Below are positions 6,637-39,883 of a stretch of 41,046 bases of DNA, one piece after another. Source of the stretch: a virus (Duplodnaviria; Heunggongvirae; Uroviricota; Caudoviricetes). Made by a program: the position numbers and the translations under genes. Where the stretch lies: the IMG/VR virus record IMGVR_UViG_2529293060_000014; one strand, written 5' to 3'. The first letter of the stretch is position 1, and each line of letters opens with the position of its first letter. The notes beneath the pieces were generated by a model. It had not been told where the DNA came from, ran no database searches, and was given only the letters and a program-made list of their open reading frames with translations.

Positions 6637-7065
6637 CGTTGGCCCCGCTTCTCTGAATCGCTTTATACCGCCATTCCAGCACTTCGGTCAGCGGCATAAC
6701 GTCAGTAACGGATGGCGGCCAGTGAAAAATGGTGGCGATATCTGCCACCAGATCGTCAACCGTCAGGCTGTCGGTAAACCGGCAAGCACCGACTTCTTCA
6801 ACAAAAAAGTGACAACCTCAACCGACATGGCTGTGAGATCTGCCGGGTCCATCTCTGCGATTTCCTGTGCAGTCAGTGCCGGACTGGAGATGCGGGGGAT
6901 CACGGTCATCATCGCGTTCACATCCATATCCATAATGGCCTGCAGGCGTGTGCCGCGCAGCGCACCAGACTGCGGTTTACGCAACACAATTTCGGTAATT
7001 TCTGTTTTACCGCGCATGATGGGGGTATCCAGTTGAATGGTCTTTTCAGTCTGTTTATCGCTCAT
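6629..7065 (-). CDS. E+E' fusion produced by programmed -1 frameshift (inferred)
   Basis: After slippage at TTTTTTG (minus strand, plus-strand 6802-6808) the -1 frame stays open (VEEVGACRFTDSL...RSGANDE) and ends at a TGA overlapping the T start codon (ATGAGTGA); same logic as P2 E/E'. Confidence 0.6.
6763..7065 (-). CDS. E: tail assembly chaperone E
   Basis: 100-aa ORF upstream of T; contains the slippery heptamer T-TTT-TTG near its 3' end. Confidence 0.8.
   Translation of the reverse strand: MSDKQTEKTIQLDTPIMRGKTEITEIVLRKPQSGALRGTRLQAIMDMDVNAMMTVIPRISSPALTAQEIAEMDPADLTAMSVEVVTFLLKKSVLAGLPTA
6802..6808 (-). other. -1 ribosomal frameshift slippery site TTTTTTG
   Basis: Plus-strand CAAAAAA in the ACT-TTT-TTG codons of E. 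Confidence 0.6.
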
Positions 7066-7119
7066 TTTGTTGTCCTGTAAATTAGGTTCTGGCGCGGCAT
7101 TCCGCGCCGTTCAGATACA

Positions 7120-7635
7120 TCAGAGGCCGAGGGCGTTGCGGTGCGCTTCCATCAGGTCCACACCGTCCACAATTTCCACCATGTTGATAAGGTCCACTTC
7201 ATAGAGCACCTCACCATTGATGGTCAGCTTCGCGTAGCTGTTGGTACTGGTCACTTTGGTGGTGTTGCTTTCGCCCGTCTTCCACTCGCCGGAATCCACT
7301 TCTTTGTGACGTCCACGCACGACAAGCTCCACGGCCTGCACTTCCCCGGTATCGTCACGCTGGATAGAGCCGGTAAAGCGCAGCTGGATGCCATCCACCG
7401 TGGATTTGCCCATCTGCTTAAACAGCAGCAGTTCAGTACCACCAATGGAAAATTCTGTATCCAGTGCACTGTCATCCAGTCCCAGATCCACATCCACCGC
7501 CCCCGGCATACCGCCGCCGCGATACTTCTCATATTTGCGGGTGAATTTCGGCAGCGTCAGCGACTCAACGATCCCCTGCCAGTTGTTCCCGTCGTTAAAC
7601 AGGTTCAGATGTTTTAATTTGCGTGGTAAAGCCAT
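7120..7635 (-). CDS. FII: tail tube protein
   Basis: 171 aa, directly downstream of the sheath gene; P2 FII is about the same size. Confidence 0.85.
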   Translation of the reverse strand: MALPRKLKHLNLFNDGNNWQGIVESLTLPKFTRKYEKYRGGGMPGAVDVDLGLDDSALDTEFSIGGTELLLFKQMGKSTVDGIQLRFTGSIQRDDTGEVQAVELVVRGRHKEVDSGEWKTGESNTTKVTSTNSYAKLTINGEVLYEVDLINMVEIVDGVDLMEAHRNALGL

Positions 7636-20275: not shown

Positions 20276-22042
20276 ATGAACACCACACTGACACCCGCAG
20301 ATCTCGATCCCCGTCGGCAGGCCATGCTGCTGTACTTTCAGGGATACCGCGTAGCCCGCATTGCTGAAATGCTGGGCGAGAAAGTTGCAACCGTTCACAG
20401 CTGGAAAAAACGCGACAAGTGGGGTGACTATGGGCCGCTGGATCAGATGCAGCTCACCACCGCCGCACGCTACTGCCAGCTCATTATGAAGGAGCACAAA
20501 GAAGGGAAAGATTTCAAAGAGATTGACCTGCTGGCGCGCCAGTCGGAACGCCACGCGCGGATCGGCAAGTTTAACAATGGCGGCAACGAAGCCGACTTAA
20601 ACCCTAACGTCGCCAACCGCAACAAAGGCCCGCGCCGTCAGCCGGAAAAGAATGTTTTCACCGATGAGCAGATTGAGAAGCTGGAAGAAATCTTCCATTC
20701 CTCCATGTTCAACTACCAGCGCCACTGGTGGGAAGCCGGAAAAACCAACCGCATCCGCAACCTGCTGAAGTCACGCCAGATCGGCGCGACCTTTTACTTT
20801 GCCCGTGAAGCCCTGATTGACGCTCTGCTTACCGGACGTAACCAGATTTTCCTTTCCGCCAGCAAGGCACAGGCCCACGTCTTTAAGCAGTACATCATCG
20901 ACTTCGCCAAAGAAGTGGAAGTGGAGCTGAAAGGCGATCCGATGGTGCTTCCCAACGGGGCCACACTGTATTTCCTCGGCACCAATGCCCGCACGGCCCA
21001 GAGTTACCACGGCAACCTGTATCTGGATGAATATTTCTGGATACCGAAATTCCAGGAGCTGCGCAAAGTGGCTTCCGGTATGGCTATTCACAAAAAATGG
21101 CGACAAACCTATTTTTCCACGCCATCCAGCCTGACACACAGTGCTTATCCGTTCTGGTCCGGTGCGCTATTCAACCGTGGGCGCAATAAAGCCGACAAGG
21201 TGGACATCGACCTGTCCCACAGCAATCTGGCTCCAGGCCTGCTGTGTGCAGACGGGCAATACCGCCAGATAGTCACCGTGGAAGATGCGGTGCGCGGCGG
21301 CTGTAACCTGTTCGACCTTGACCAGTTGCGCATGGAATACAGCCCGGACGAATACCAGAACCTGCTGATGTGTGAATTCGTGGACGATCTCGCGTCCGTG
21401 TTCCCGCTCAGCGAGCTGCAGGCGTGCATGGTGGACAGCTGGGAAGTCTGGACCGACTTTCATGCACTGGCCCTGCGCCCGTTTGGCTGGCGCGAAGTGT
21501 GGATCGGTTATGACCCGGCAAAAGGTACGCAAAACGGCGACAGCGCCGGGTGCGTGGTGGTGGCACCGCCAGCCGTGCCGGGCGGTAAGTTCCGCATTCT
21601 TGAGCGTCACCAGTGGCGCGGGATGGACTTCCGCGCCCAGGCTGACGCCATCAAAAAACTGACCGAACAGTACAACGTGACATACATCGGCATCGACTCA
21701 ACTGGCGTCGGCCACGGGGTTTACGAGAACGTGAAAGCGTTTTTTCCAGCCGTCCGGGAGTTTGTCTACAACCCCAACGTTAAAAACGCCCTGGTACTCA
21801 AGGCCTACGACATTATCAGCCACCGCCGTCTGGAGTTTGACGCCGGGCACACCGACATTGCGCAGTCATTCATGGCAATCCGTCGCGCCACCACCGCCAG
21901 CGGCAACCGCCCGACCTATGAAGCCAGCCGCAGCGAAGAAGCCAGCCACGCCGATCTGGCTTGGGCAACGATGCACGCATTGTTTAACGAACCGCTGCAG
22001 GGCGAATCCGCCAATACCAGCAATATTGTGGAGATTTTTTGA
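20276..22042 (+). CDS. P: terminase large (ATPase) subunit
   Basis: 588 aa; N-terminus resembles P2 gpP as recalled; followed by the portal gene with overlapping stop/start. Confidence 0.9.
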   Translation: MNTTLTPADLDPRRQAMLLYFQGYRVARIAEMLGEKVATVHSWKKRDKWGDYGPLDQMQLTTAARYCQLIMKEHKEGKDFKEIDLLARQSERHARIGKFNNGGNEADLNPNVANRNKGPRRQPEKNVFTDEQIEKLEEIFHSSMFNYQRHWWEAGKTNRIRNLLKSRQIGATFYFAREALIDALLTGRNQIFLSASKAQAHVFKQYIIDFAKEVEVELKGDPMVLPNGATLYFLGTNARTAQSYHGNLYLDEYFWIPKFQELRKVASGMAIHKKWRQTYFSTPSSLTHSAYPFWSGALFNRGRNKADKVDIDLSHSNLAPGLLCADGQYRQIVTVEDAVRGGCNLFDLDQLRMEYSPDEYQNLLMCEFVDDLASVFPLSELQACMVDSWEVWTDFHALALRPFGWREVWIGYDPAKGTQNGDSAGCVVVAPPAVPGGKFRILERHQWRGMDFRAQADAIKKLTEQYNVTYIGIDSTGVGHGVYENVKAFFPAVREFVYNPNVKNALVLKAYDIISHRRLEFDAGHTDIAQSFMAIRRATTASGNRPTYEASRSEEASHADLAWATMHALFNEPLQGESANTSNIVEIF

Positions 22043-23073
22043 TGGGAAAGAGTAAGAAGAACCGCGCTGCGTCACAGAACCAGACCCAGCATAAAAGCCA
22101 GACTTCAGCCGAAGCATTCAGCTTTGGCGATCCCATTCCTGTACTGGACCGCCGCGAACTGCTGGACTATGTGGAATGCGTACAGACAGATCGTTGGTAT
22201 GAGCCGCCAGTGAGTTTCGACGGGCTGGCGCGCACCTTTCGCGCCGCCGTGCATCACAGCTCACCGATTGCAGTAAAGTGCAACATTCTGACCAGCACCT
22301 ACATCCCTCACCCGCTGCTCAGCCAGCAGGCTTTTTCACGTTTTGTGCAGGACTATCTGGTATTTGGTAACGCCTACCTGGAGAAACGCACGAACCGCTT
22401 CGGTGAAGTTATCGCCCTTGAACCGGCCCTAGCAAAATACACCCGACGCGGGTTAGACCTGGATACCTACTGGTTTGTGCAATACGGCATGACCACGCAG
22501 CCGTATCAGTTCACGAAAGGCAGTATCTTTCATCTGATGGAACCGGACATCAACCAGGAGATCTACGGCCTGCCCGGTTATCTTTCTGCCATTCCATCCG
22601 CCCTGCTCAACGAGTCCGCCACGCTGTTCCGTCGAAAGTATTACATTAACGGCAGTCATGCTGGCTTCATCATGTACATGACCGATGCCGCGCAGAACCA
22701 GGAGGATGTGAACAACCTCCGCAACGCGATGAAAAGCGCCAAAGGTCCAGGCAATTTCCGCAACCTGTTTATGTACTCCCCCAATGGCAAAAAGGATGGT
22801 ATTCAGATCATCCCACTGTCAGAGGTAGCGGCAAAAGATGAGTTTCTGAACATCAAAAACGTGAGCCGGGATGACATGATGGCTGCCCACCGCGTGCCGC
22901 CTCAGATGATGGGGATTATGCCTAGCAATGTTGGGGGGTTTGGTGATGTGGAAAAAGCAAGCAAAGTGTTTGTTAGAAATGAATTAATCCCATTGCAAAG
23001 AAGGATTCAAGAACTTAACGAATGGCTTAACATAGAAGTTATTATCTTTTCTCCATATAATTTATCCAATTGA
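22039..23073 (+). CDS. Q: portal (capsid vertex) protein
   Basis: 344 aa, the size of P2 gpQ; transcribed toward the cos-like site. Confidence 0.9.
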   Translation: MMGKSKKNRAASQNQTQHKSQTSAEAFSFGDPIPVLDRRELLDYVECVQTDRWYEPPVSFDGLARTFRAAVHHSSPIAVKCNILTSTYIPHPLLSQQAFSRFVQDYLVFGNAYLEKRTNRFGEVIALEPALAKYTRRGLDLDTYWFVQYGMTTQPYQFTKGSIFHLMEPDINQEIYGLPGYLSAIPSALLNESATLFRRKYYINGSHAGFIMYMTDAAQNQEDVNNLRNAMKSAKGPGNFRNLFMYSPNGKKDGIQIIPLSEVAAKDEFLNIKNVSRDDMMAAHRVPPQMMGIMPSNVGGFGDVEKASKVFVRNELIPLQRRIQELNEWLNIEVIIFSPYNLSN

Positions 23074-23080
23074 ATTTAAT

Positions 23081-23097
23081 GGGTAGTAAAACTACCC
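23081..23097. terminator. hairpin between convergent Q and DprA-like gene
   Basis: GGGTAGT-AAA-ACTACCC; only weak flanking T-runs. Confidence 0.4.
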
Positions 23098-23098
23098 A

Positions 23099-24076
23099 CT
23101 AAATCAGAAAGTGACTCATATTAGATCTATAAATATCAGAATTTATCTTAATTTTGCTTATTGACTCAGATATTACATTCATCAGTGAATCATAGTCTTG
23201 ACTAGTGCGCAAGGGATTAGCCAATTCATTATCAACAAGTTGTTGAGTTCCTTCGCAATTAAGTCCCAGTGGATTATCAGCCTTATGCGGTACAACAGCA
23301 AAAATAGGTCTTGCCGCTTTAATAGCAAAATCCGCCTGCGTCATTGTCCCACTATTTTTTGCTGCTTCGATTAGTATCGAAACTGCTGATAAACCTACCT
23401 GGATTCTGTTGCGTTGCACAAATGACTGCTTGAATGCAGGCCTCCCTACAGGATACTCAGAAATCCAAGCCCCACCGTTAGATAAAATTTCATTTGCTAA
23501 TCTAGCATTTTGTTTAGGCTTAGCGCTCTCTAAACCATGAGCTAATACAGCAATTGTTTTAGCACCTGCCTTAAGAGCTGCCTTGTGTGCATTTGTATCA
23601 GTACCAATAGCTAGGCCGCTTACAATCACCACACCTCTTTCACAGATTTTCTTGGTAATTCTCTTCGTAATTTCTTCCCCTGCCATAGAAACTTCACGAG
23701 AACCAACAATTGCAACTCCTGGCATCTCACTAAGAATATTTACGTCCCCCTTCAAATATAACATTGCTGGGGGATTTGGCGTAATTGCTAAACAAATAGG
23801 GTATTTAGCATCTCCAAAAGGAATTGGAACAATCCCCAATGACAAATGCTTGCTCAAATAGTCTTCAGCATTATGCAATGACGCTATAGAAAAGGCGGAT
23901 TTTAAAATCCCGGCTGAATTAACACACTCAACCAATTCATATTCATCGGAAATAATATGGAATGGAATATCGTTAAATAATTTAAGCAACCCTTGTTCTG
24001 ATGCAAGTCTATCAACCTGTACCGATAGACCTAACAATATTTTGAATTGGGAAGGGTGCATTATTTCACTCCTCAT
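23099..24076 (-). CDS. DprA/Smf-like Rossmann-fold protein (ShosA-like putative antitoxin)
   Basis: 325 aa; central VAIVGSREVS...GVVIVSGLAIGTDTNAHKAALKAGAKTIAVLAHGLE...YP...RNRI matches the DprA nucleotide-binding fold; AT-rich; overlaps the upstream PRTase gene by 11 nt. Confidence 0.7.
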   Translation of the reverse strand: MRSEIMHPSQFKILLGLSVQVDRLASEQGLLKLFNDIPFHIISDEYELVECVNSAGILKSAFSIASLHNAEDYLSKHLSLGIVPIPFGDAKYPICLAITPNPPAMLYLKGDVNILSEMPGVAIVGSREVSMAGEEITKRITKKICERGVVIVSGLAIGTDTNAHKAALKAGAKTIAVLAHGLESAKPKQNARLANEILSNGGAWISEYPVGRPAFKQSFVQRNRIQVGLSAVSILIEAAKNSGTMTQADFAIKAARPIFAVVPHKADNPLGLNCEGTQQLVDNELANPLRTSQDYDSLMNVISESISKIKINSDIYRSNMSHFLI

Positions 24077-24635
24077 AATTAGCTGTTTCTAGTAACGCCA
24101 GTGGCAATATTGTCTTTGCGCCTGCATATCTTAACAGATAATAGCACGCCGTCATACTCCCCCCAGTTGTAGTAACATCATCAATAAGGAGAATAACCTT
24201 ATCAGCCACATTGGATGTAACTCCGATTGTTGACATATGATGTTCGACAGAACGATCTCCGCCCCCCTTATGAGCACTCACTACTGTTGTTTTTCTCTGT
24301 AATGATTGGTTATATACAGCATTAGGAAATTTTTTCGCAATATCTTGCGCTATTTTTATTAAAGCTTGAGATACTTTTCCCTCAGCATGAGAAGGAACAA
24401 TTGTTATCTCAAAGGGCACGTCGGTAAAAGCAACCCTACCAATCACATAGCTTTGGAGGCTAGAAGTTAAAAGTTGGGTAAAAATATTAACAGCCTTTGC
24501 ATACCCGGAATTTGAAGCGTCCTTCAAATCCATCATTGCCTTTGAAAGTCTATCCCCGGAACGAGGATTTCGCTCTCCTCGATATCGCCAAGGATGATAT
24601 GTACCGCAAGAGTAAATTTTGATTGGCCCCATCAT
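24066..24635 (-). CDS. phosphoribosyltransferase-domain protein (ShosT-like putative toxin/effector)
   Basis: 189 aa; C-terminal type-I PRTase motif VILLIDDVTTTGGSMTA; AT-rich codon usage unlike the phage core. Confidence 0.7.
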   Translation of the reverse strand: MMGPIKIYSCGTYHPWRYRGERNPRSGDRLSKAMMDLKDASNSGYAKAVNIFTQLLTSSLQSYVIGRVAFTDVPFEITIVPSHAEGKVSQALIKIAQDIAKKFPNAVYNQSLQRKTTVVSAHKGGGDRSVEHHMSTIGVTSNVADKVILLIDDVTTTGGSMTACYYLLRYAGAKTILPLALLETANYEE

Positions 24636-24761
24636 TTTTCTGCGCCTTAAGAGTAGATATATCCATATTAAATGGATACTTACATCATTTACAACCCAAA
24701 AAATGACACCAAGTTATCACTAATGACTTAGGTTCAAATGCCAAACTAACTCTCTGCGCGC

Positions 24762-24781
24762 GCTCGTATCCCCGCCACGCC
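24762..24781 (-). other. candidate cos cohesive-end site
   Basis: Minus strand reads GGCGTGGCGGGGATACGAGCGCGCGC, resembling the P2/186 cohesive ends I recall (GGCG[A/T]GGCGGGGAAAGCA) followed by a GCGCGC tract; no search run. Confidence 0.4.
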
Positions 24782-25123
24782 TGCCCGCTTTATGTAGTGG
24801 TTTTCATGCAGGTGCATGATCTACGCAAAAGCCCGCCAGTTCTGGCGGGCTTTAGCAAAAACGATCCTCAAACGATCATGCAATCTCATGCAGCATAGAC
24901 ATGCACAGACGAGTAAAGCGAATCGGACTTTACGCAAGGTGAACTCCTCAGCGGGCATAATCAGTATGTCGGAAGATCTCTAAAAATGAATAATTCGGTT
25001 AACAGGTATGCTTACAAAAGCATATATTTGATTAAAAATCATGTAAGGGGGAGGATCTCAAACTGAATCGCCACGGGTTTTACAAATTTCGATAGTCTCT
25101 CTAACGTTTCGGCTGAGGTCAAA

Positions 25124-25549
25124 ATGAAAAGCTTTTACGTATTAATTTTAATTCTGGTTGCAAGCTTTGTTAGCGTCCCAGTTCAGGCGGTAACAGCTAA
25201 AAACTATGAGAAAGGAACTAAAGCTCAACAGAAATCAATATCTTACCTTTCATGTGCATTCTATGGCAGTAGCACACAATTAGATCCTAGCTACACGGAG
25301 CAAGTACCTACAGCCGATATCAAGATATTACAGAAAGCAGCTTACCACGCTTACAACGATGCGCTCTCATACTTTGGTTATGAGGAACCAGATCACGAAC
25401 AACGCATAATTGATTATGCTGAATTTGTGGCGTCGCAAGAAGCTGTGTTATGGGATAAACCGGGAATGAATGGAAAGCAGGTAACACTAATTGCTCGTTC
25501 TCTCTACAATGAGAGTAACTGTAACTTGTTACTGGACTCAATTAAGTAG
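25124..25549 (+). CDS. hypothetical secreted protein (signal peptide, cleavage after VQA)
   Basis: 141 aa; N-terminal MKSFYVLILILVASFVSVPVQA; AT-rich; no recognisable domain. Confidence 0.6.
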   Translation: MKSFYVLILILVASFVSVPVQAVTAKNYEKGTKAQQKSISYLSCAFYGSSTQLDPSYTEQVPTADIKILQKAAYHAYNDALSYFGYEEPDHEQRIIDYAEFVASQEAVLWDKPGMNGKQVTLIARSLYNESNCNLLLDSIK

Positions 25550-25708
25550 GAAAAAGATGGTATTTTGCCCGTAGTTTCAACCTTAATCTCCGAACCTGTC
25601 GCAGAACGGGCGTTCACTCATCAAATAAACGCCACACCTAACGCCTCACTGTACTCGTTGTTCAACCTTGCTGACGCCAGAAGCAATTTCAGACGCCAGC
25701 AACGTTTC

Positions 25709-26014
25709 TTAATGCAGCCAGCTGTCGTCTTCCCACACCTTCTGCATAATTTTCATCACTTGTTTTCTTTCTTCGTCCAGTTGCAGTCCGGTCAGTTCCA
25801 CACCGTTAGAGCTACCTTTACGGATACGGATTACCGTTTTGGGATACAGGGGGCGCAGATTGCGGTAAAGCTCGGATTCAAGGGCGTCCAGGGTAGACTG
25901 GCTAATCTTCTGCTCTTTATCGATCATTATTTCAATGCGCATAAAAGTCACCTCAGCTGATGACATCCATTGAGCGGTTGTATTCGTGGGTTCTGATTTT
26001 TGCCATGAGTTCAT
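25709..26014 (-). CDS. DinI-family protein (possibly the C-terminal part of a 186 Tum-like SOS antirepressor)
   Basis: From MRIEIMIDKEQKISQSTLDALESELYRNLRPLYPKTVIRIR...KVWEDDSW the ORF resembles DinI; start ambiguous (26014, 25966 or 25942). Confidence 0.6.
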   Translation of the reverse strand: MNSWQKSEPTNTTAQWMSSAEVTFMRIEIMIDKEQKISQSTLDALESELYRNLRPLYPKTVIRIRKGSSNGVELTGLQLDEERKQVMKIMQKVWEDDSWLH

Positions 26015-26141
26015 CAGTCAATTCAGAAACCCACTGCAGAGCCAGCCCCTTCTCTTCATCACTACACTCACTAGCCGCTACAAGCTTAAGAAAAAAATCA
26101 ATGCGCTGGAGCTTCAAAGACTCCAAAAAATAGTCCTGCAT
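25953..26141 (-). CDS. small SOS-controlled protein (62 aa), possible Tum N-terminal part
   Basis: Start at MQDYFLE with AGGAGG SD 4 nt upstream; lies immediately downstream of a consensus LexA box; track ORF extends to 26243 but that would place the LexA box inside the coding region. Confidence 0.5.
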   Translation of the reverse strand: MQDYFLESLKLQRIDFFLKLVAASECSDEEKGLALQWVSELTDELMAKIRTHEYNRSMDVIS

Positions 26142-26183
26142 CTTTCCTCCTATGACACCACACGCAACACTGTATGTATAACC

Positions 26184-26202
26184 ACTGTTTATATTTACAG
26201 TA
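26184..26202. promoter_or_regulatory. LexA box (SOS operator)
   Basis: CACTGTTTATATTTACAGT: CTGT-N8-ACAG with AT-rich spacer, close to the consensus TACTGTATATATATACAGTA. Confidence 0.7.
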
Positions 26203-26294
26203 TATAATAATCTTACTGATGTAAAACGTTTTTTTACGTTCATCAGCCTGATATGCCTGGTATTATTAAGAGCACGAATTGTTAACCCGCGTAA

Positions 26295-28709
26295 TTAATA
26301 CAGGTTCCGCCACTGATCATCTTCCTGCAAACGCTGGTTCCGATAGAAGATACGCAGGCCTGCTCCTGACGGAATACTGCCTCCGCGAAGGAGTAAATCG
26401 ACCTCTTTCTCGCTGCCATCAAATCCTCTGGACTTCAGCTCATACACGAGCTGCAGTCGCTGATGGTCTGTAATTCGCTGTTTGTAGTCTTTACGCCGTT
26501 TCGGTTTCACCAGGCGTAACCTTGCTGCCAGTTCCCGGCGCTCTTTTTTGCTCATACTGTGCAGGTAATCGTGCAACTCCTTGTCATCCATGCGGGTAAT
26601 GTCCGTCCTGGTATCCCCATCAGCTGATTTATCTTTCCCTTGTTGGTTCAAATTTTCAGCAAGGGGACAGTTATTGCCACGAGTCCAAGGGGCGCAAGCG
26701 CCCTGGTCGGCTGCCGCCTCCTGAACGTCAACGGCTTTACGAACCATTTTCCACTTCACTGCATGAGTGCAGATCTTGCCCTCTGCAATGGGTGACCAGA
26801 TGCCATAAATACGAATACCGTGATCGCCATAGGCGGTCGGCTCTTCGTTGATTTCATAAGCGGTTCTGATGAGGTGATATTTACGGGGAACCAGTACGCC
26901 GCCCTGCTTCATGATGTAGGTGGCAAAGCAACCAGCATCAGCTGCAGCCAGAATGGCATCAAGGCGCGGGTTATCCAGTACCGGCGCACCTGCTTTTTTG
27001 TCACCCTGTTGCCTTGCCGCCTGACCAGCCAGCAATCGCAGTTCACGGTAAGCCTGACGCCCCGGAATGCCAAAGAAGCGGAATTGCTGAACACGATGCA
27101 GAGACGCCCAGGCATTAACGTATTCAGCGTTATTACGCAGAGATTTACCCGTTTCCTTGCTGATCTCGCCAGCCAGACCACGCCCGTCAATGTTCTTACT
27201 GATATATTTCGCGATGTAGCTTGTCGGCGTTCCTTTGCGCGGGTTAATCAACTCAGACTTAAAGCGCGGCCCAGTGTTATTGCCCAGCTCCTCGCGGTCT
27301 TCACGGATGGCAAACTTACGCAGTAATGCAGTGATGGCGCGGCGATCTTTTTTGCGCATAAAACACAACAGGTGCCAGTGAACTGTACCGTCATGATGCG
27401 GCTCAGCCACCCGCACGCCATACCAGCGCAATCCGGCTTTGTGCATCGCCTTACGAAATGCAGCAAACATGCCGACCAGATAGTCGCTGCTTTGTCTTAC
27501 CGTCGAGTTTGTCCAGGTCGGGTTGGGTCTGCCGTTATTGAGCGTGGAATGGAAACGCGACGGACAGGTGATAGTGTAGAAAACGGCGCAGTCACCGCGC
27601 ATTTCCGCGATAAGCTCCAGACCTTTAACACAGGCCATCATCTCATTGCGGCGATGCGCCGGGTTGCTGCTGCTGGCGTTTACCACATCTTCCATATCCA
27701 GCGTGTCGCCGTCTTCGTTCACCAGTTCATGAGAACGGAAAAACTCCAGCGACTTACGGCGCTGCTCACGTTTATGCATCACGGCTTCATAGCTGACATA
27801 GGGGGATGCTTTTTTGCTGACCAGGCAGACAGCACGCAACTGCTCTTCCCGCCATTCGCAACGCATCTTCCATAATTTCCGATACCACCAGTCGGCACAC
27901 AACATACGCGCCAGCGAACCCGGAATGAGTTCATAGGGCACGGGTTTACGGCGGTTTCTTTTCCGACGGAGTTGCTCAAACGCAGGCGGAATAACATCCA
28001 GACGCAGGGTTTCCGCTGCCACCTTTTCCCATGTTTTGCGGATTTCTTCTGGCTTAACGTCATCGGTGGCATACAAATCACCACAAGCGGCATCAAGGCA
28101 CATGCTCATATGCGCAGCGACAAGGGTGGACAGGCGCTTCACCTGATCCTGACTCATTTCAGGCAGGATAAGCAGGCCATCCAGCCCTTCATGGCTTGCC
28201 ATAAAGCGAAAAGAAGTGGATAGCTGACAGTCGCGGACATGCTCCAGTCGTTCCAGACATGGCTTAATCGTCTCACGCAAATAGCGGGAATAAGCCTTTG
28301 GCCTGCCCAGGCTGCTGAAATATTCAATACGTTGCATCAGCGGCTTGCTGATATGGGAAGGCTGGGCGTTGACGTCAGCCAGAATGACCATGTCCGGATT
28401 AAAACGCTGCTGCTCATGCGCCAGCTTTGCCCGGCTAATGAGCTTATCCTGCTCCATTTCGCGCTGGACAGGATCACGGGATTCATTAAAGAAATAACGC
28501 TCCCAGACCTGATCACTCAGTGCCTCGCGGCGCAGTTGTTCCTGCTCGTTATCGGCAGCGTACAGAGTGATCAGGTTTGAAAGTGCAGAAACCGGCGCAA
28601 CTTCCGCCGGGTCCAGATAAGGGTTAATGGCCTTTTTTGGGCTGTTCCATGAGAATGCTGCGGCGACCTCGTTAAAGCCGCTGCAGTTGTTCATATCAGC
28701 ATGGCTCAT
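26295..28709 (-). CDS. A: replication initiation endonuclease A (rolling-circle initiator)
   Basis: Track ORF of 813 aa; start set at MSHADMNNC because its ATG overlaps the dam stop (ATGA); size and position match P2/186 gene A. Confidence 0.85.
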
Positions 28710-29563
28710 GCACGCACTCCGTACACGGCGGAACAATCCACGCCACGCGAAGGATCAAATCCTATCCAGCAGCGCGGCCCGGCAACAGCAATGATTTCTG
28801 TTGCAGATTTACTCTCACCAGCTGCCACGCCGATGCTGCGTTTTGCCTTGATGTAGTGGTGAGTAAAATTGCGATACAGCGAACGGATCAGGGATGTGTC
28901 ACTGTTAGAAATAATGACCGGATATCCTTCTGATGACCGATGTTCAAGAACGGATGCCAGGTGATACTGGTCATCTTCAGTGAAACCATCAGTGTGATAG
29001 CCGGAAAACGTACCGTCATAAGGCGGATCGCAATACACCACATCCCCCGCGTGCAACATCGCCAGCGTTTCATCGAAGCTGGCGCAGATAAACGTTGCCC
29101 GCTGGGCTTTTACTGCAAATGCACGAATTTCTTTTTCAGGAAAATACGGATTTTTATAATTACCGTAGGGAATGTTGAAATGCCCGCTCTTGTTATAGCG
29201 ACATAAACCACGGTAACCGTGACGATTGAGATACAGGAAATATATCGCTTTCATGAAATCAGTAATTTCAGTTGAGTAATTAAACTCCTGCCTTATGTTG
29301 TAATAATCCATCTCCCTGTTTGCGTTCTCAAATAAAACTCTGGCGCGAGATATAAACGATTCACAATCAGCGGCAACCTTTTTATAGAGGTTGATTAAAT
29401 CAGGATTAATATCCGCAACCAGATAGCTGGGATAATCCGTCTCCATCATCACAGCACAGGAACCCGCGAAAGGTTCAACCAGTCGCGGGCCAGCAGGAAG
29501 ATGTTTTTTCAGTTCGGACATTATGGCAGTTTTATTTCCCGCCCATTTCAGGATGGTGCTCAT
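28706..29563 (-). CDS. dam: DNA adenine methyltransferase (Dam, GATC-specific family)
   Basis: Start at [11 protein letters not shown] (ATGA overlap with upstream stop); colinear with E. coli Dam: LKWAGGK, EPFxGxG SAM motif, LYLNR.GY.GLCRYN, DPPY catalytic motif. Confidence 0.9.
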
Positions 29564-29787
29564 ACAGCACCTCCGTTGTAATGTTTGCCTTTCAGCTCTG
29601 CGATTTCCTGACAGGTAATGCAAAGCTGCACACCCGGAATGGCACGGCGGCGTGCTGGCGGAATTGGCGCTTCACACTCAATGCAAAGCACGCGGGACAC
29701 GCCCGGCGTTTTGGCACGGGCAGCACGGATATGGCGTTGGCGTTCTTCTTCAACGCGCTGCTGTACGAGATCCATTGCATCAGCCAT
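29560..29787 (-). CDS. TraR/DksA-family C4 zinc-finger protein
   Basis: 75 aa with CIEC...CITC. Confidence 0.7.
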   Translation of the reverse strand: MADAMDLVQQRVEEERQRHIRAARAKTPGVSRVLCIECEAPIPPARRRAIPGVQLCITCQEIAELKGKHYNGGAV

Positions 29788-32391: not shown

Positions 32392-33408
32392 ATGACTGTC
32401 AGAAAACAGCCAAACGGCAAATGGTTGTGTGAGTGCTATCCCAATGGACGCAATGGCAAGCGCGTGCGTAAGCAATTTGCTACGAAAGGAGAAGCCATTG
32501 CTTTTGAAAGCTTCACAATGGAAGAAGTGAATAAAAAACCGTGGCTAGGTGAAAAGGATGATCGGCGACGCCTATCAGAATTAATTGAGCTTTGGTATTC
32601 CCTGTATGGCCAGACACTCGCAGACCCCAAGCGCCTCATGGCGAAACTTAGAATTATCTGTAATGGTCTAGGCGACCCCATCGCCTCAGAACTGACAGCC
32701 GGTGACTTTACAAAATACCGCGAAGCACGGTTAAAAGGCGACGTTCGTAACGAAGACGGCACACTAATGTCGCCAGTAAAACCACGCACGGTGAATCTTG
32801 AGCAACGTAACCTATCATCGGTTTTCGGCACATTGAAAAAACTAGGCCACTGGTCAGCACCAAATCCTCTCGCCGGGCTGCCAACATTTAAAATCGCTGA
32901 GGGGGAACTGGCGTTCCTGACCTCGGAAGAAATTAAACGTCTGCTAGATGCCTGCGCTGATTCTCAAAACCCCAGTCTGCTTTTGATTGCAAAAATATGC
33001 CTGGCCACCGGCGCACGCTGGAGTGAAGCCGAAAACCTGCAGGGCCATCAGTTATCTAAATACCGCATCACTTATACCAAGACGAAGGGCAAGAAAAACC
33101 GCACCGTGCCGATATCTCAAGATCTGTATGACGAACTCCCCAAGAACAGAGGGAAGCTATTCACCCCGTGCAGAAAAGCCTTTGAACGGGCAGTAAAGCG
33201 AGCTGGCATCGAGCTGCCAGAGGGCCAATGCACTCACGTGCTACGTCATACATTCGCCAGTCATTTTATGATGAATGGCGGAAACATACTGGTCCTACGC
33301 GATATTCTGGGCCATGCCGATATAAAAATGACGATGATTTACGCCCACTTTTCGCCGGATCATCTTGAAGATGCAGTTACTAAAAACCCTTTATGCAACT
33401 TAAGATAG
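32392..33408 (+). CDS. int: tyrosine integrase (P2/186 type)
   Basis: 338 aa; C-terminal HVLRHTFASHFMMNGGNILVLRDILGHADIKMTMIYAHF (R-H-R-Y catalytic box); directly downstream of cI. Confidence 0.9.
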   Translation: MTVRKQPNGKWLCECYPNGRNGKRVRKQFATKGEAIAFESFTMEEVNKKPWLGEKDDRRRLSELIELWYSLYGQTLADPKRLMAKLRIICNGLGDPIASELTAGDFTKYREARLKGDVRNEDGTLMSPVKPRTVNLEQRNLSSVFGTLKKLGHWSAPNPLAGLPTFKIAEGELAFLTSEEIKRLLDACADSQNPSLLLIAKICLATGARWSEAENLQGHQLSKYRITYTKTKGKKNRTVPISQDLYDELPKNRGKLFTPCRKAFERAVKRAGIELPEGQCTHVLRHTFASHFMMNGGNILVLRDILGHADIKMTMIYAHFSPDHLEDAVTKNPLCNLR

Positions 33409-33786: not shown

Positions 33787-35523
33787 CTACTCAAGAAGAT
33801 ATTCTAACTCATCTTTTATCGGGATAACTTGCTCATAAAGTCGGTGATATGACTTCCCAATTGCGCCTCTGAATTGTATTAACTTTGGTGGCTTGTTACC
33901 TATATTAATAATATGGTCTTGAGCTATACCTGGGTAGGGATCAATAAATACAATTTCAGATATACCTAACTGATAAGCTTTTTTCGCACACAGCTCACAG
34001 GGACTGGCAGTTGTATATAACCTCCCCCCCTGAACGCCAATGCCACCATATTTTGCAAGTTGTAAAAATGCGTTTTCCTCAGCATGTAATGCACGTGTAT
34101 GAACTTGATTACCTTTTTTATCTTTATCAAGATCATTATGTATATCTTTAAAACAATAAGATAAGTTCCTGCCTCTATAAATATCACCAGTTTTATCTAT
34201 CGCCCTAAAATTTAATAGTTTCTCATTAGCTTTAATTCTGAAAGAACTATTATTTCTCTCATAATAACTGTACACTTTTTCATCAAAGTCGTTCATTAGG
34301 CCATCTAGCGATCTCATAGAGCAAGGAATCTGACCGTTGGCGACATCATTCCAACCCACTGATTTTATTGAATTTTCACCATCAGTTACTACAGCTCCCA
34401 CCTGTCTAGATATACAACCAGAGTTTAATTTTACCGTATACGCAACTTGCATAACCCTTTCCATTGCAGTAGGTGTTATCAGACCAGGATGCTTCATCAG
34501 TGCGATGTACCACGCTAATTGTGCTTTTAAAATATTGTCATTATCAAATTCATTTTTTGGGTTAAAAATGTGTATATCTGATAGTTCAATGCATTTAGTT
34601 ACATTTGGATTAGTGAGATGTTTGTAAGAGTTATCACCTTTACCTGACTCTACAGAATCTATTTCCTCTATCTGCTTTTCAGAAAACTTATGTAGTTTCC
34701 GCAAATAGTTTGTTCGATGTTCATCTGGGGCATTTATTGACATTAAATGAAATGCAGAATATCTATCCTTAAAAAATTTTGCTTCATATGGATTTCTAAT
34801 AGCATCTATGACAATTAATGCGTTATCTCTTTTGCTTTTTCTTATTAATTTAATAACCCTATTAATAGTTTCCGGCAAATGAAAAACAGATTTAGGTATA
34901 AACTCTTTATCTTCAAAATCGACTTCAATACGCCCACGGCGTCTAATTGACTTACCTGCTAACTGATAGACTGAAACATATAAATTTGAGTTTATCGCAT
35001 TTAGTTCAGCTTTGAATTCCTTAGTAAATTTTCTAACTAACCTCAAAATTGATATAAATTTATTAATCGTTTTTTCATTAAGCTTCAATTCACTATTATG
35101 ATCAAGCAAATTCTCAATTACATTTTTAAATCTTGTTAAAATGAGATTATCTGAAAATACACCAAAAGTTAATACATTATCTAAATGCTCTTTACTGATA
35201 GATTTATTAGATGATAGAATAAACTCAGAAGCTTCTTCAACTGTTAACATCAAAAGATACGCTGAGATTAGGTCACTCACCTTAATTGAGTAAAAATTTT
35301 CCCAGTGATTTTCTGCGAATTTTTTAACTATATTATAACGATGGACATCCAATCCCTTGTAAAAACCCTGTAATTTACTTACATCAGGGAAGACTGTTTT
35401 TTCGTTTTCAAGAATATTAGCTGTTGTTGTGCAACCAGAACCAGTTCGACCTGTCAAACCGACTAAAATAAACTGCCCATTTTCAAGGAAAAGCTCACTA
35501 ACGAATTTTTTTTCTTTCATCAC
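33787..35523 (-). CDS. P-loop NTPase/kinase + cytidine (dCMP/dCTP) deaminase fusion protein, AvcD / anti-phage dCTP-deaminase-like
   Basis: 578 aa; N-terminal Walker-A-like GLTGRTGSGCTTT (Cys in the usual Lys position); C-terminal zinc-deaminase signature HAEENA...SPCELCAKKA; about 30% GC, unlike the phage core. Confidence 0.6.
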   Translation of the reverse strand: MMKEKKFVSELFLENGQFILVGLTGRTGSGCTTTANILENEKTVFPDVSKLQGFYKGLDVHRYNIVKKFAENHWENFYSIKVSDLISAYLLMLTVEEASEFILSSNKSISKEHLDNVLTFGVFSDNLILTRFKNVIENLLDHNSELKLNEKTINKFISILRLVRKFTKEFKAELNAINSNLYVSVYQLAGKSIRRRGRIEVDFEDKEFIPKSVFHLPETINRVIKLIRKSKRDNALIVIDAIRNPYEAKFFKDRYSAFHLMSINAPDEHRTNYLRKLHKFSEKQIEEIDSVESGKGDNSYKHLTNPNVTKCIELSDIHIFNPKNEFDNDNILKAQLAWYIALMKHPGLITPTAMERVMQVAYTVKLNSGCISRQVGAVVTDGENSIKSVGWNDVANGQIPCSMRSLDGLMNDFDEKVYSYYERNNSSFRIKANEKLLNFRAIDKTGDIYRGRNLSYCFKDIHNDLDKDKKGNQVHTRALHAEENAFLQLAKYGGIGVQGGRLYTTASPCELCAKKAYQLGISEIVFIDPYPGIAQDHIINIGNKPPKLIQFRGAIGKSYHRLYEQVIPIKDELEYLLE

Positions 35524-35828: not shown

Positions 35829-35925
35829 ACGTCTATTGTCGTCCAGTGAGAATTGCTGAGAACTACGAGTTATGGCACCCTGAATGGGACCCACTAAGAA
35901 GGGTCCAAAAACCGAGGGTCCCAAA

Positions 35926-37155
35926 ATGGCAAAAATCGCTAAGAAGCTCACTGACACTGAAATCAAAAGCACCAAGCCAGCCGATAAAGAAATCAACTTG
36001 TTTGACGGTGATGGTCTGATTCTACGAATCGCTCCTTTGGCGAAAGGAGGCAAGAAAAATTGGTATTTCAGGTATGCAGTACCAGTGAGCAAGAAAAGAA
36101 CCAAAATGAGCCTTGGGACATATCCTCACCTTACCCTTGCAAGAGCCAGAGCCTTACGTGATGAATATCTCTCCTTTCTGGCAAATGGTGTTGATCCCCA
36201 AATCCATAACAACGATAAGGCGAAGGCATTAAAGAGTGCTACTGAGCACACTCTCCAAGCCGTAGCGCGGAAATGGTTAGATGAGAAGGTAAAGACATCA
36301 GGTATCTCACAAGACCATGCAGCAGACATCTGGCGCAGCTTAGAGAGAAATGTCTTTCCCGGTCTGGGTAATGTCCCTATCAATGAGATCCGACCTAAGC
36401 TCTTAAAACAACACCTTGATCCTATTGAGCAACGAGGCGTATTGGAAACTCTACGCCGTATCATTTCACGTCTGAATGAAATCTTCCGGTGGGCAGCTAC
36501 TGAAGAACTTATTGAGTTCAACCCGGCTGACAACCTTGGTCAAAGATTCAGTAAACCAAAAAAGCAAAATATGCCTGCCCTTCCCCCAAGCGAATTGCCA
36601 AGGTTTATGGAATCTTTGACGAATGCGTCAATCCGGTTGGAAACACGTATGCTAATTGAATGGCAATTGTTGACATGGGTTCGTCCGGGTGAAGCCGTTC
36701 GCGCAAGGTGGTCTGATATTGATACAACCAACAGCATTTGGAACATTCCTGCTGATTTCATGAAAATGAAAAAGCTTCACAAAGTTCCTTTGAGTAAAGA
36801 AGCTTTGCGCATCCTTGAATTAATGAAATCAATAAGTGGGCATAGAGAATGGGTTTTCCCCAGCATAAAAGCGCCTCTTAATCATATGCATGAACAAACA
36901 GCCAACGCAGCTATCATCCGAATGGGGTTCGGAGGCGAGCTTGTAGCTCACGGTATGCGTTCTATTGCACGAACAGCGGCAGAGGAGTCTGGTAAATTCA
37001 GAGCTGAAGTTCTTGAGGCAGCGCTTGCCCACTCGAAAAAAGATGAAATTATCGCAGCATACAATCGTGCAGAATATCTGATAGAGCGACAGAGTTTGAT
37101 GCAATGGTGGAGTGATTACGTTCAAGCTCAAAGATCAAATGCTCTGGTAGCCTAA
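35926..37155 (+). CDS. intA: P4/CP4-57-type tyrosine integrase
   Basis: Track ORF 35884-37155; start set at MAKIAKKLTDTEIKS by similarity to E. coli IntA (MARKTKPLTDTEIKAAKP...) as recalled; conserved HGMRSIARTAAEE and AYNRAEYL boxes. Confidence 0.85.
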   Translation: MAKIAKKLTDTEIKSTKPADKEINLFDGDGLILRIAPLAKGGKKNWYFRYAVPVSKKRTKMSLGTYPHLTLARARALRDEYLSFLANGVDPQIHNNDKAKALKSATEHTLQAVARKWLDEKVKTSGISQDHAADIWRSLERNVFPGLGNVPINEIRPKLLKQHLDPIEQRGVLETLRRIISRLNEIFRWAATEELIEFNPADNLGQRFSKPKKQNMPALPPSELPRFMESLTNASIRLETRMLIEWQLLTWVRPGEAVRARWSDIDTTNSIWNIPADFMKMKKLHKVPLSKEALRILELMKSISGHREWVFPSIKAPLNHMHEQTANAAIIRMGFGGELVAHGMRSIARTAAEESGKFRAEVLEAALAHSKKDEIIAAYNRAEYLIERQSLMQWWSDYVQAQRSNALVA

Positions 37156-37682: not shown

Positions 37683-39449
37683 TTATGGTAGCATCATTGA
37701 TACATAATCCACACCAATCCTTGAGCTATACTGAGACGCTATAGCCTGATATCTTTCTGCATAACCAGTTCTCAGTTGAGATTTAAGTTTGAGTCGGACA
37801 GGAACATTTTGCACGTTGCCATCCATATTACTTAAAAACACGGCAGAAATAATATTTTTTTCTTCGCCATCAACTGTTGTTCCATGATTCAACACCACCA
37901 TATAATCAACAACAGGAAGCGTTTTATCCCCTTCGAAAATAGAGAGATATTTTCTTTGATTTTTATGCATTACATATATATATTTCGAATGTTCAGCAAA
38001 TGGCAATGCTTTACTCTGACTGGCGTTAAAAAGCTCCAGAACTTTAATGAGCCTGTGCGGACTTAATCTTACATGGTGAGGGTCGTTACCCTGAGTAGGA
38101 ACCAAATCACATGCCGCAGATACACATAAATACCATTTGTTCGACTCTGTATCAAAGAAAATAGTGCCAGTAGAAATATGACCATCTTCAAAATTCTTTG
38201 AAGACAAATTCATATTTAAAGCATGATACATTTCGTGATAAGTATCATTATTTGATGGCAGATCCATTTTTGAAGAGCAATATTGGAGCAATGCAGCAAC
38301 TCCGCTGTTAGCGTATTCATTTGAATAGCTATCAAAAACACTTTTGATAAATTCATCCAGCGTATTATTATTTTTAAGTCTTTGATAAAGCTCTTCTGAT
38401 AAATTACCAAATACAAAGTCAATATTTCTACATCTAATATCAGGCGAGTCTGATTTTAATATCTCATTTAACCACGCAGCTTGACCGTAATGATCGTTAG
38501 CCAAATGATTTACAAAAGATAAAGCCTCAGCTTCGATTGCATTCTGAATTTCAGATTTTATTAACTGATAATAAGATGGTTTCCATTCAATGAGAGAATC
38601 ATTGAGAGTTTGCCAAATCCTATCTCCATCGTTTTCATGATCATCTTGAACCTTATGAAATAGGGAGACAAAGATATTACCACATTGAATCCATTTTACT
38701 CCGCTTTCATCACCCCGAATGACATTGCCAGATGTGTTGCTAGAAATAATTGCATTTCTAGACACAGCATATTCTGCAATCATTTTTGCAATGAAGTTTT
38801 TATCCTTTTGATCCTCCAACACAGCATCATCATGTATTAATCTTTTAATTCTTCTACAAGGCTTACTGTCTTTAATATAGGCTATTGTTTCATCTCTTGT
38901 GAGAGCTTTATTACCATTATCATTTAAGTTCGGTAATACAACGTCTTCCCAATAACTTTGGACATCTTCATTATCGTAGTCAATGATCAAGCTGTTGATA
39001 TCCAGAGCACCTTTGAGAGTCGATGATATCTGCATCCAAACCGTTTCTAAATTCTCTCTAGTATATATTACAATCATATTTAAATGATCGGAGTCTTTCA
39101 AATCTTGTAATAGTTTAAGTGTTTTATCAGGTGCATTATTATCAAGATGATAATCTACAATAATAAGATCTGATTTTCTAATCCGATCCACATCGAAATT
39201 AACAGAACCATTGTCAACATCACAAATCATATTTTTAGATTGAAAAAAGCTCTCAAGAGTAGCGGCTCGTTTAGATGAGTCAATTTTGTTGTAGTCTAAA
39301 TCAACTTCGTTATTCAACGCCCTGATTGATTCAGAATACGTCAGAAAATCGTCATCAATCATGACAACGGAACGAATTGCATTTTCGCAGAAAGTTTTCT
39401 GGACAAGAGAATTATAATTTGCCACTGTCATATTAGAACTCCACTCCAT
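37683..39449 (-). CDS. receiver (REC)-domain protein with large uncharacterised C-terminal output domain
   Basis: 588 aa; N-terminus has CheY-like landmarks (VVMIDDDF acidic pocket, IIVDYHL candidate phospho-acceptor Asp, MIVIYT); remaining ~440 aa match no family I recognise; start overlaps the upstream kinase stop by 17 nt. Confidence 0.6.
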   Translation of the reverse strand: MEWSSNMTVANYNSLVQKTFCENAIRSVVMIDDDFLTYSESIRALNNEVDLDYNKIDSSKRAATLESFFQSKNMICDVDNGSVNFDVDRIRKSDLIIVDYHLDNNAPDKTLKLLQDLKDSDHLNMIVIYTRENLETVWMQISSTLKGALDINSLIIDYDNEDVQSYWEDVVLPNLNDNGNKALTRDETIAYIKDSKPCRRIKRLIHDDAVLEDQKDKNFIAKMIAEYAVSRNAIISSNTSGNVIRGDESGVKWIQCGNIFVSLFHKVQDDHENDGDRIWQTLNDSLIEWKPSYYQLIKSEIQNAIEAEALSFVNHLANDHYGQAAWLNEILKSDSPDIRCRNIDFVFGNLSEELYQRLKNNNTLDEFIKSVFDSYSNEYANSGVAALLQYCSSKMDLPSNNDTYHEMYHALNMNLSSKNFEDGHISTGTIFFDTESNKWYLCVSAACDLVPTQGNDPHHVRLSPHRLIKVLELFNASQSKALPFAEHSKYIYVMHKNQRKYLSIFEGDKTLPVVDYMVVLNHGTTVDGEEKNIISAVFLSNMDGNVQNVPVRLKLKSQLRTGYAERYQAIASQYSSRIGVDYVSMMLP

Positions 39450-39818
39450 TGAACTGGATCACAAAATTAGCGCCATCTTTTATTAAATAGTTATCGCCTT
39501 CATCAGGTTCTGAATACCATATTTTATGATGTGCAACAGCAAGGTTTTCTCGACATAGATACAGACCTACCCCATGTCCATTTGCTCTTTTGCTATAAAA
39601 TAGTTCAAATAGTCGCGGGATATCATCGGTATCAATTGCCGGACCAGAATTTGCTATGATAACCAAAGAATTCACAAAACCAATCTTTATGAGCCTATTA
39701 TTTGACAGACTGACCCAATACATTGCATTGTTGATAATATTAGTAAAAACAGGATAGATCCTTGATGGTATATCTGTTATTGCGATTTGCTTAAACTCTT
39801 CACTAAATTCAATAGTTA
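39433..39818 (-). pseudogene. sensor histidine kinase, 3' fragment only (5' part interrupted by IS3)
   Basis: Encodes a HATPase_c catalytic domain (N-box NIINNAMYW, G1 ANSGPAID, F-box FELFY, G2 GHGVGLYLCRENL); the frame runs without a start into the IS3 terminal repeat at 39819. Confidence 0.65.
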
Positions 39819-39883
39819 TGATCTTACCCAGCAATAGTGGACACGCGGCTAAGTGAGTAAACTCTCAGTCAGAGGTGACTCAC

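Follow-up and report, generated by a model that had tools for sequence, protein, structure and literature searches.

A short, toxin-first ShosTA-like gene pair in the Q–cos defence hotspot of a P2-family prophage

We analysed a 41,046-nucleotide stretch of viral DNA (Caudoviricetes; IMG/VR record IMGVR_UViG_2529293060_000014), referred to below as the window. It contains a prophage that belongs to the P2 family (Fels-2/186 type), has a CI-type repressor and adjoins ssrA. Between the portal gene Q and the cos site lie two minus-strand genes, which encode a 189-amino-acid (aa) phosphoribosyltransferase (PRTase) and a DprA-family protein. We consider it likely that this locus is a ShosTA-type toxin–antitoxin (TA) defence module, with the PRTase as the toxin (ShosT) and the DprA-like protein as the antitoxin (ShosA). 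The name 'ShosTA-like' was preferred to 'ShosTA' because the N-terminal pyrophosphatase domain is missing and the gene order is reversed. The cassette would be cargo of the cos-proximal defence hotspot of a Fels-2/186-type P2-family prophage and would act as a minimal ShosTA-type abortive-infection module. From the comparisons given below we infer toxicity, neutralisation, a trigger and phage protection, and we propose the details of the mechanism with less confidence than the identity of the module. The locus is made up as follows.

22039–23073, plus strand: portal gene Q, 344 aa, RefSeq 'phage portal protein'.
23020–24755, no strand assigned: variable cargo cassette of the Q–cos hotspot, holding the 3' codons of Q, a predicted terminator hairpin, shosA, shosT and the leader with a putative promoter.
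23099–24061, minus strand: shosA-like predicted antitoxin gene of the DprA family, 320 aa; an alternative upstream start at 24076 gives 325 aa.
24066–24635, minus strand: short shosT-like predicted toxin gene, 189 aa, with the PRTase domain only and no pyrophosphatase/HAD domain.

A previous sequence-only reading had described a 189-aa PRTase gene followed by a 325-aa DprA-like gene and had compared the pair with ShosTA. Both open reading frames (ORFs) are present, with the Pfam domains Pribosyltran and DNA_processg_A, respectively. The comparison with ShosTA was borne out by the best PADLOC profiles, the nearest structures, a profile–profile alignment and the location in a defence hotspot. 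The same reading had called the genes AT-rich and convergent to Q. This is correct, as both lie on the minus strand and Q on the plus strand, and the GC content is 0.39 in the module (23074–24755) versus 0.55 in the prophage backbone.

For the PRTase, Pfam gave Pribosyltran (8e-7, 28.9 bits, cut-off 26.3), and no HAD or other hydrolase Pfam domain was found in the 189 residues. In the profile search that the sequence-only reading had proposed, ShosT (PDLC03962) was the best PADLOC defence-family match (E 2.7e-18, 64.7 bits). PsyrT came second with 37 bits, covering only model positions 553–686 of 689, and the narrow APEC-type ShosT model PDLC03012 was not matched. The AlphaFold model of the protein had a predicted local distance difference test (pLDDT) score of 88.8 and a predicted template-modelling (TM) score of 0.87. 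When this model was compared with the PDB using Foldseek, the three ShosT structures 8zvc, 8zvd and 8zvb occupied ranks 1–3 (E 7.5e-7 to 1e-5). The superposition on 8zvc (E 7.5e-7) had a TM score of 0.59 and a root-mean-square deviation of 2.6 Å over 165 columns. Helicobacter pylori ComF (7p0h, E 1.8e-5) was the fourth match, and ordinary PRTases ranked lower.

Aligning the profile of the short family with that of the long ShosT family by hhalign yielded a probability of 98.8% (E 5.5e-17), with PRTase residues 72–187 set against ShosT 229–365 and about 21% identity over 116 aligned core columns. This alignment pairs H83 with H240, R114-x-TT with R274-x-TT, and D152/D153 with D331/D332. The aspartates lie in the phosphoribosyl pyrophosphate (PRPP)-binding loop, which was located by both BLASTP and hhalign.

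24156–24194, minus strand: PRPP-binding loop ILLIDDVTTTGGS, residues 148–160, holding D152/D153.

D152, D153 and H83 are invariant among the closest relatives, and D152/D153 also in the wider family. In ShosT, the PRPP residues D331/D332 and R285 are essential, and H240 and K280 are contributory; the D331A/D332A mutation abolishes toxicity and H240E lowers it (PMC11961720; PMC12961424). K123 and the invariant R128 have the same K-x4-R spacing as K280/R285 and are candidate equivalents of them. The N-terminal region of about 70 residues is distinct from long ShosT and carries an invariant C-G-x-Y-H-P motif. Two other alignments were set aside. In a single-sequence hhalign run against APEC O1 ShosT, the PRPP loop alone was aligned, so family profiles were needed on both sides. 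The residue equivalences in a MAFFT alignment of short and long toxins were unreliable beyond the PRPP loop, and this alignment was not used.

The DprA-like protein matched DNA_processg_A in Pfam (2.4e-60). ShosA (PDLC03961) was its best defence-family match in PADLOC (E 2.6e-70, 235 bits), followed by PsyrA (101.7 bits). It is 34% identical to the validated APEC O1 ShosA over 201 aa. The model (pLDDT 94.4) consists of helices 3–74, forming a SAM-like N-domain, a Rossmann core (77–284) and a helix at 287–317. R122 and R217 correspond to R139 and R234 of ShosA, and both are invariant in the family alignment; K183 corresponds to ShosA K200. In ShosA, R139 and R234 are essential for single-stranded DNA (ssDNA) binding and antitoxin activity, K200 is the main RecA contact and R206 a further one.

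The position of the module was assessed relative to cos. The cos core was found as follows.

24763–24781, no strand assigned: 19-nt cos core CTCGTATCCCCGCCACGCC (reverse complement GGCGTGGCGGGGATACGAG), within a conserved region from about 24756 to about 24906.

A sample of 80 close portal-gene relatives was drawn from IMG/VR and gave 76 scorable loci. The cos core is identical in 73 of these, and the other three differ by one base. It can also be aligned with GTGCTTTCCCCGCCTCGCC, the P2-type sequence of the published pFR105 fragment. The cos region is conserved in 47 deposited P2-family phages and a P4-like satellite; in this deposited-phage collection the cos region alone was matched and the module was absent. 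The name cos is itself based on what has been published on the cos sites of P2 and P4 (Ziermann and Calendar 1990, as cited in PMC9122126). With the core at 24763–24781, the module lies between Q and cos, as the sequence-only reading had placed it.

The distance from the Q stop codon to the cos core ranged from 519 to 3529 nt across all 76 relatives, so the interval whose comparison had been suggested turned out to be hypervariable in every one of them. It is filled with known defence genes. In total it held 116 ORFs in 72 protein clusters and about 50 cassettes, and all 116 cargo ORFs are convergent with Q. According to PADLOC and Pfam, this cargo includes retron reverse transcriptases, AbiU/AIPR, PIN, AAA_15/21, GmrSD, TIR, Schlafen, Cap4 nuclease and SieB. 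The variable segment begins 15–18 codons inside the portal 3' end and stops 6–8 nt before the cos core. The portal C-terminal tail differs from one cassette type to the next, with the common pattern WL....I.F..Y.L. In the window, the final 15–18 codons or so of Q (about 23020–23073, GC 0.29) are cassette-specific. Compared with relatives that have other cargo, the similarity stops at 23018–23028 (23059 in one relative) and resumes at 24753–24757, 6–8 nt from the cos core. These limits define the cassette as about 23020–24755, including its own portal C-terminal tail.

The cos-proximal gpA–gpQ interval is a P2-family defence hotspot, and a DprA + PRTase pair from this hotspot protects against T7 and lambda (Rousset 2022, PMC9122126). 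The module occupies this hotspot. Its position on the Q side of cos had been contrasted with that of old/tin in P2. We rejected the view that this position is exceptional, because all 76 close relatives and Fels-2 carry cargo there, making the Q side the norm of the lineage. In both Fels-2 and phage 813R9, a single cargo gene occupies the Q side in this way, whereas the cargo of P2 itself and of APEC O1 is on the A side of cos.

In the window, the A side (24782–26294) is occupied as well. It contains a 141-aa hypothetical protein (25124–25549, plus strand), for which Pfam and PADLOC gave no match, a small conserved ORF, and a DinI-family protein (25709–26014, minus strand) whose RefSeq form is shorter (77 aa). 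The DinI-family gene, of a RecA-modulating type, and the ShosA-like gene, with its predicted RecA binding, stand on opposite flanks of cos.

The two genes of the module are tightly coupled under either start codon of shosA. The 11-nt overlap described earlier is real if translation begins at 24076. The internal ATG at 24061 (MHPSQF..., 320 aa), which is the start used by RefSeq and most homologues, leaves a 4-nt gap instead. The gap appears more likely, given the following ribosome-binding site.

24069–24074, minus strand: GAGGAG Shine-Dalgarno sequence of shosA, 7 nt before ATG 24061, in the final two sense codons of shosT.

The surrounding sense-strand sequence is TATGAGGAGTGAAATAATGCAC. The embedding of the Shine-Dalgarno sequence in the 3' codons of shosT suggests translational coupling. 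Further candidate elements were found in the leader and between the convergent genes.

24665–24694, minus strand: candidate sigma-70 promoter, TTGTAA (24694–24689), 18-nt spacer, TAATAT (24670–24665).
24660–24678, no strand assigned: perfect 7+7-nt inverted repeat TATCCAT-N5-ATGGATA, overlapping the candidate –10 hexamer.
23081–23097, no strand assigned: hairpin GGGTAG-TAAAA-CTACCC, in the 25-nt gap between the convergent stop codons of Q and shosA.

On the minus strand, a consensus promoter scan yielded nothing for the module; the candidate is sub-threshold. It agrees with the consensus at 8 of 12 positions, lies in the 127-nt leader and reads from the cos side toward shosT. Its hexamers and spacing are identical in the Cronobacter module. 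We regard it as a putative weak sigma-70 promoter for the module. The hairpin is likely to be a cassette-borne bidirectional terminator. In the same gap, the cassettes of Cronobacter, Salmonella, Pectobacterium and a second E. coli variant have GC-rich hairpins of other sequence with 5–7-bp stems, and this preservation of structure across four other short-ShosTA cassettes suggests the terminator function. An RNA antitoxin or a retron non-coding RNA (ncRNA) was also considered, but the Rfam scan of the cassette found no RNA.

The inverted repeat had been reported with arms one base shorter and had been proposed to be an autoregulatory operator. The repeat is present, and its perfect arms and its overlap with the candidate –10 hexamer would suit an operator bound by a module protein. 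The role assigned to it did not hold up. When the 127-nt leader was shuffled with dinucleotides preserved, 7% of the shuffles contained an equal or better repeat. Two uncompensated changes break the repeat in the Cronobacter module, which is 88% identical, and Pectobacterium lacks it. Neither protein has a recognisable sequence-specific DNA-binding domain; characterised ShosA binds ssDNA non-specifically and does not bind ShosT. An operator is therefore improbable, and the repeat is probably fortuitous.

Searches beyond the window showed how widely the short toxin occurs. A word-indexed search found 29 clusters at 90% identity in Enterobacterales, with lengths of 187–197 aa save for a few shorter fragments. 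An exhaustive profile search (E ≤ 1e-10) extended the family to 754 representative clusters at 50% identity. Most of these are proteins of 175–200 aa that match end to end, and a few are the C-terminal domains of PsyrT-size fusions. Genomic contexts were gathered by exact-protein look-ups; a scan of genome contigs with the family alignment gave four loci, with two spurious PRPP-loop matches. In all 13 contexts sampled, the short PRTase gene is directly followed by a DprA-family gene of 309–325 aa, always with the toxin gene first and with the two genes overlapping by up to 11 nt or separated by up to 13 nt. The pairs lie on P2-like prophages (Cronobacter, Salmonella and Pectobacterium, plus a second E. 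coli variant), a P4-like satellite (Hafnia), Mu-like prophages (Shewanella, Aeromonas) and integrase- or resolvase-associated islands (Burkholderia, Vibrio, Gallaecimonas), as well as on a metagenomic contig. This pairing of PRTase and DprA is far beyond chance. Judged by these homologues, the short PRTase + DprA pair is a family and not a truncation.

In the Hafnia P4-like satellite, the region 4861–7537 contains the short PRTase + DprA pair, an adjoining cos-like sequence and a 295-aa FRG-domain protein. The location of the pair beside a cos-like sequence suggests that the module moves between helper-phage and satellite hotspots. The exact module occurs in 14 of 5,426 complete E. coli genomes. 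At least 999 public contigs carry the exact PRTase sequence, with no name beyond 'phosphoribosyltransferase'. The sequence is that of WP_016245841, an accession that Table S5A of Rousset 2022 gives as 'Pribosyltran + DNA_processg_A', outside the systems tested there (PMC9122126).

Characterised ShosTA systems come from E. coli APEC O1 and KTE181 (Rousset 2022, pFR105; Millman 2022; Pu 2025, PDB 8ZVA–8ZVD; Yang 2026, PDB 9VZO). The present module resembles them in having two genes, for a PRTase toxin and a DprA-like antitoxin, in the cos-proximal gpA–gpQ hotspot of P2-family prophages. The PRTase cores are homologous, with the pyrophosphate (PPi)-loop His and the essential Asp–Asp pair conserved, and the antitoxins share the fold, the arginines for ssDNA binding and the lysine that contacts RecA. 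Characterised ShosTA is a type IV TA system: ShosT is toxic by itself, ShosA counteracts it with no direct contact, and the unstable ShosA disappears once transcription is shut off. APEC O1 has the order Q, cos, shosA (5229–6212), shosT (6214–7488) and gpA; that is, the cargo lies on the gpA side of cos there and on the Q side here.

Several observations weigh against the assignment to ShosTA. The antitoxin gene is first in APEC O1, whereas the toxin gene is first here. Characterised ShosT has 424 aa, with an N-terminal HAD-like pyrophosphatase (1–164) fused to the PRTase (165–424) (PMC11961720), and both the pyrophosphatase domain and the C-terminal extension of about 60 residues are absent from the 189-aa protein. 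The score of the latter on PDLC03962 is modest beside the 180 bits of APEC O1 ShosT. BLASTP against long ShosT found only a 41-residue stretch around the PRPP loop, and a phmmer search of the PRTase against the PDB gave no match. The equivalents of K280 and R285 could not be placed reliably, since they fall in a flexible loop of the hhalign alignment. For the DprA-like protein, the fold matches to DprA 3maj, ShosA 8zva and DprA 3uqz had similar scores, and it is equally near genuine DprA and ShosA in the PDB sequence search as well. Since the fold comparison cannot separate ShosA from DprA, the ShosA label rests on the partner and the context. This protein has kept neither ShosA R206 nor the dimer contacts L181/F182. 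Its model has three low-confidence C-terminal residues and no long disordered tail, a feature linked to the instability of ShosA. We found no experiments on the short form in the accessible literature, which excludes Kimelman 2012 and Sberro 2013, and Vassallo 2022 makes no mention of a short PRTase + DprA pair. On the other side, the pyrophosphatase mutation R56A lowers ShosT toxicity only marginally (PMC11961720), which makes a PRTase-only toxin plausible.

Other systems were compared in the same manner. The PsyrTA/RqlHI system likewise couples a PRTase-domain toxin to a DprA/SLOG-like antitoxin. Over its full length, N-terminal part included, the short PRTase profile matches the C-terminal domain of large, PsyrT-size fusion proteins (for example residues 545–705 of a 708-aa protein). 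Unlike PsyrT, the 189-aa PRTase has no large N-terminal helicase-type region, and its pair scores lower with PsyrTA than with the ShosT/ShosA profiles in PADLOC. Defence-associated PRTases serve as effectors elsewhere too, namely in retron-associated PRTases, Ophion OpnC and system 98 of Rousset Table S5B (PMC9122126; bioRxiv 10.1101/2025.09.30.679545). In contrast to the retron and Ophion PRTases, no reverse transcriptase, ncRNA, radical-SAM or PHP partner is found here. System 98, with 33 occurrences in the same hotspot, pairs a 186-aa SLOG/DprA-like protein with a 195-aa PRTase (PMC9122126), whereas the partner here is a full-length SAM + Rossmann DprA and not a short SLOG protein.

With these comparisons in hand, we propose the following mechanism for the ShosTA-like module. 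In the lysogen, the cassette's own weak promoter beside cos would drive the toxin and the translationally coupled antitoxin toward Q. The short ShosT would bind PRPP through the PPi-loop His83 and the Asp152–Asp153 PRPP loop. It would then transfer or consume the phosphoribosyl group, and the perturbed nucleotide (purine) pools may lead to replication-associated DNA damage. The ShosA-like protein would not bind the toxin. It may instead bind ssDNA through Arg122 and Arg217 and engage RecA through Lys183, and RecA-linked recombinational repair would offset the toxin damage in uninfected lysogens. An infecting phage might shut off host expression, as T7 gp0.7 does, or supply competing ssDNA or replication intermediates. 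Either event would remove or divert ShosA, and the pre-made toxin would block phage and host DNA replication, protecting the lysogen population.

The pair might also serve purely for addiction, stabilising the prophage or the cassette with no meaningful anti-phage activity. The module is always on mobile elements, and ShosTA is said, in a paper citing Kimelman 2012, to have been first described as a TA pair. The characterised ShosTA systems of the same hotspot protect against T7 and lambda, however, and the slot holds many non-TA defence genes in the relatives. We consider an exclusive addiction role unlikely, although the data are compatible with it and addiction and defence are not mutually exclusive.

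Slightly less likely still is a competence-type ComFC/DprA pair, that is, a non-toxic recombination or DNA-processing module with which the prophage would load RecA on ssDNA, for instance when it recombines or when DNA ends are handled at cos. ComFC is a PRTase-fold protein that acts with DprA in transformation, and it carries an N-terminal four-cysteine zinc finger. The structural match to H. pylori ComF is significant, a weak match to comF TIGR00201 exists, and the DprA-like protein resembles genuine DprA structures as well as it does ShosA. The sequence-only reading had itself named the competence families as the placement that would speak against ShosTA, and all of their models stayed below cut-off. 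For the PRTase, comF TIGR00201 gave 28.5 bits (cut-off 233.55) and GntX 17.7 bits (cut-off 304). For its partner, dprA TIGR00732 gave 183.6 bits (cut-off 191.15) and the E. coli-type DprA model NF008007 gave 164 bits (cut-off 495). The ShosT and ShosA profiles outscore these competence models, and the ShosT structures rank above ComF. The N-terminal region of the family alignment contains one conserved cysteine (C10) and no four-cysteine zinc finger. The pair is swappable prophage cargo among defence genes, not a core phage function or a chromosomal competence locus.

A nucleotide-metabolism or counter-defence module, with a PRTase that makes or salvages a nucleotide for the lytic phage and a DprA-like protein that shields phage ssDNA, is the least probable of these alternatives: PRTases are normally salvage or biosynthetic enzymes and no acceptor substrate has yet been assigned to ShosT itself, but no housekeeping PRTase model reaches its cut-off (best ribose-phosphate diphosphokinase, 27.1 bits versus 113), the cassette, with a leader of its own, runs opposite to the late operon, unrelated defence genes replace it in sister phages, and the strict coupling to a DprA-like gene mirrors the TA logic of ShosTA and PsyrTA.

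The remaining features of the window concern the surroundings of the prophage.

698–1060, plus strand: tmRNA gene ssrA (295.8 bits, tag ANDENYALAA), at the left edge of the window.

The position of ssrA at the left edge indicates that the prophage and the neighbouring islands occupy the ssrA integration hotspot. Immediately downstream of replication gene A, and overlapping its 3' end by about 30 nt, is an orphan Dam-like DNA adenine methyltransferase gene (28706–29623, minus strand; PADLOC oMTase 1.5e-110). Just beyond the prophage integrase gene (32392–33408), an AT-rich block (GC about 0.30–0.37) holds a gene for a 578-aa protein of a dCTP-deaminase-type defence family (33787–35523, minus strand; PADLOC dCTPase 8e-145; Pfam dCMP_cyt_deam_1). 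The segment 35884–39834 looks like another tandem island at the ssrA site. It starts with a second tyrosine integrase gene (35884–37155, plus strand), followed by a 138-aa ORF. A 588-aa Response_reg_2 (PF19192) protein and a 133-aa HATPase_c protein are encoded as a convergent pair at 37683–39834 (minus strand).

The system type, the hotspot and even the protein accession are already in the literature, and the module, an uncharacterised variant of an established type of defence system, is not a new class. For the short toxin-first architecture as a separate form, we found neither recognition nor a test in the literature searched. Kimelman 2012 and Sberro 2013 are reportedly the source of the founding ShosTA. 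Since the short form is present in a Mu-like prophage of Shewanella, the founding ShosTA pair may itself be short; if so, TA behaviour would already have been shown for this architecture. It is possible, though doubtful, that the short pair is a distinct, widespread minimal lineage rather than a degenerate ShosTA, with the two-domain ShosT and the helicase-fused PsyrT as elaborations of it. The toxin would then work without pyrophosphatase coupling, using another acceptor or acting as a plain PRPP drain through the invariant N-terminal C-G-x-Y-H-P element, and the pair would be the simplest system for identifying the substrate of defence PRTases.

For the host, these findings mean that the prophage probably provides abortive-infection immunity. 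They would also improve the annotation of about a thousand public contigs that are labelled only 'phosphoribosyltransferase' and 'DNA-processing protein DprA'. The central question for ShosTA is which substrate the PRTase toxin phosphoribosylates. The short version suggests that the pyrophosphatase domain is not obligatory in the ShosTA design, and the short toxin would be a smaller, simpler protein for substrate and structure work.

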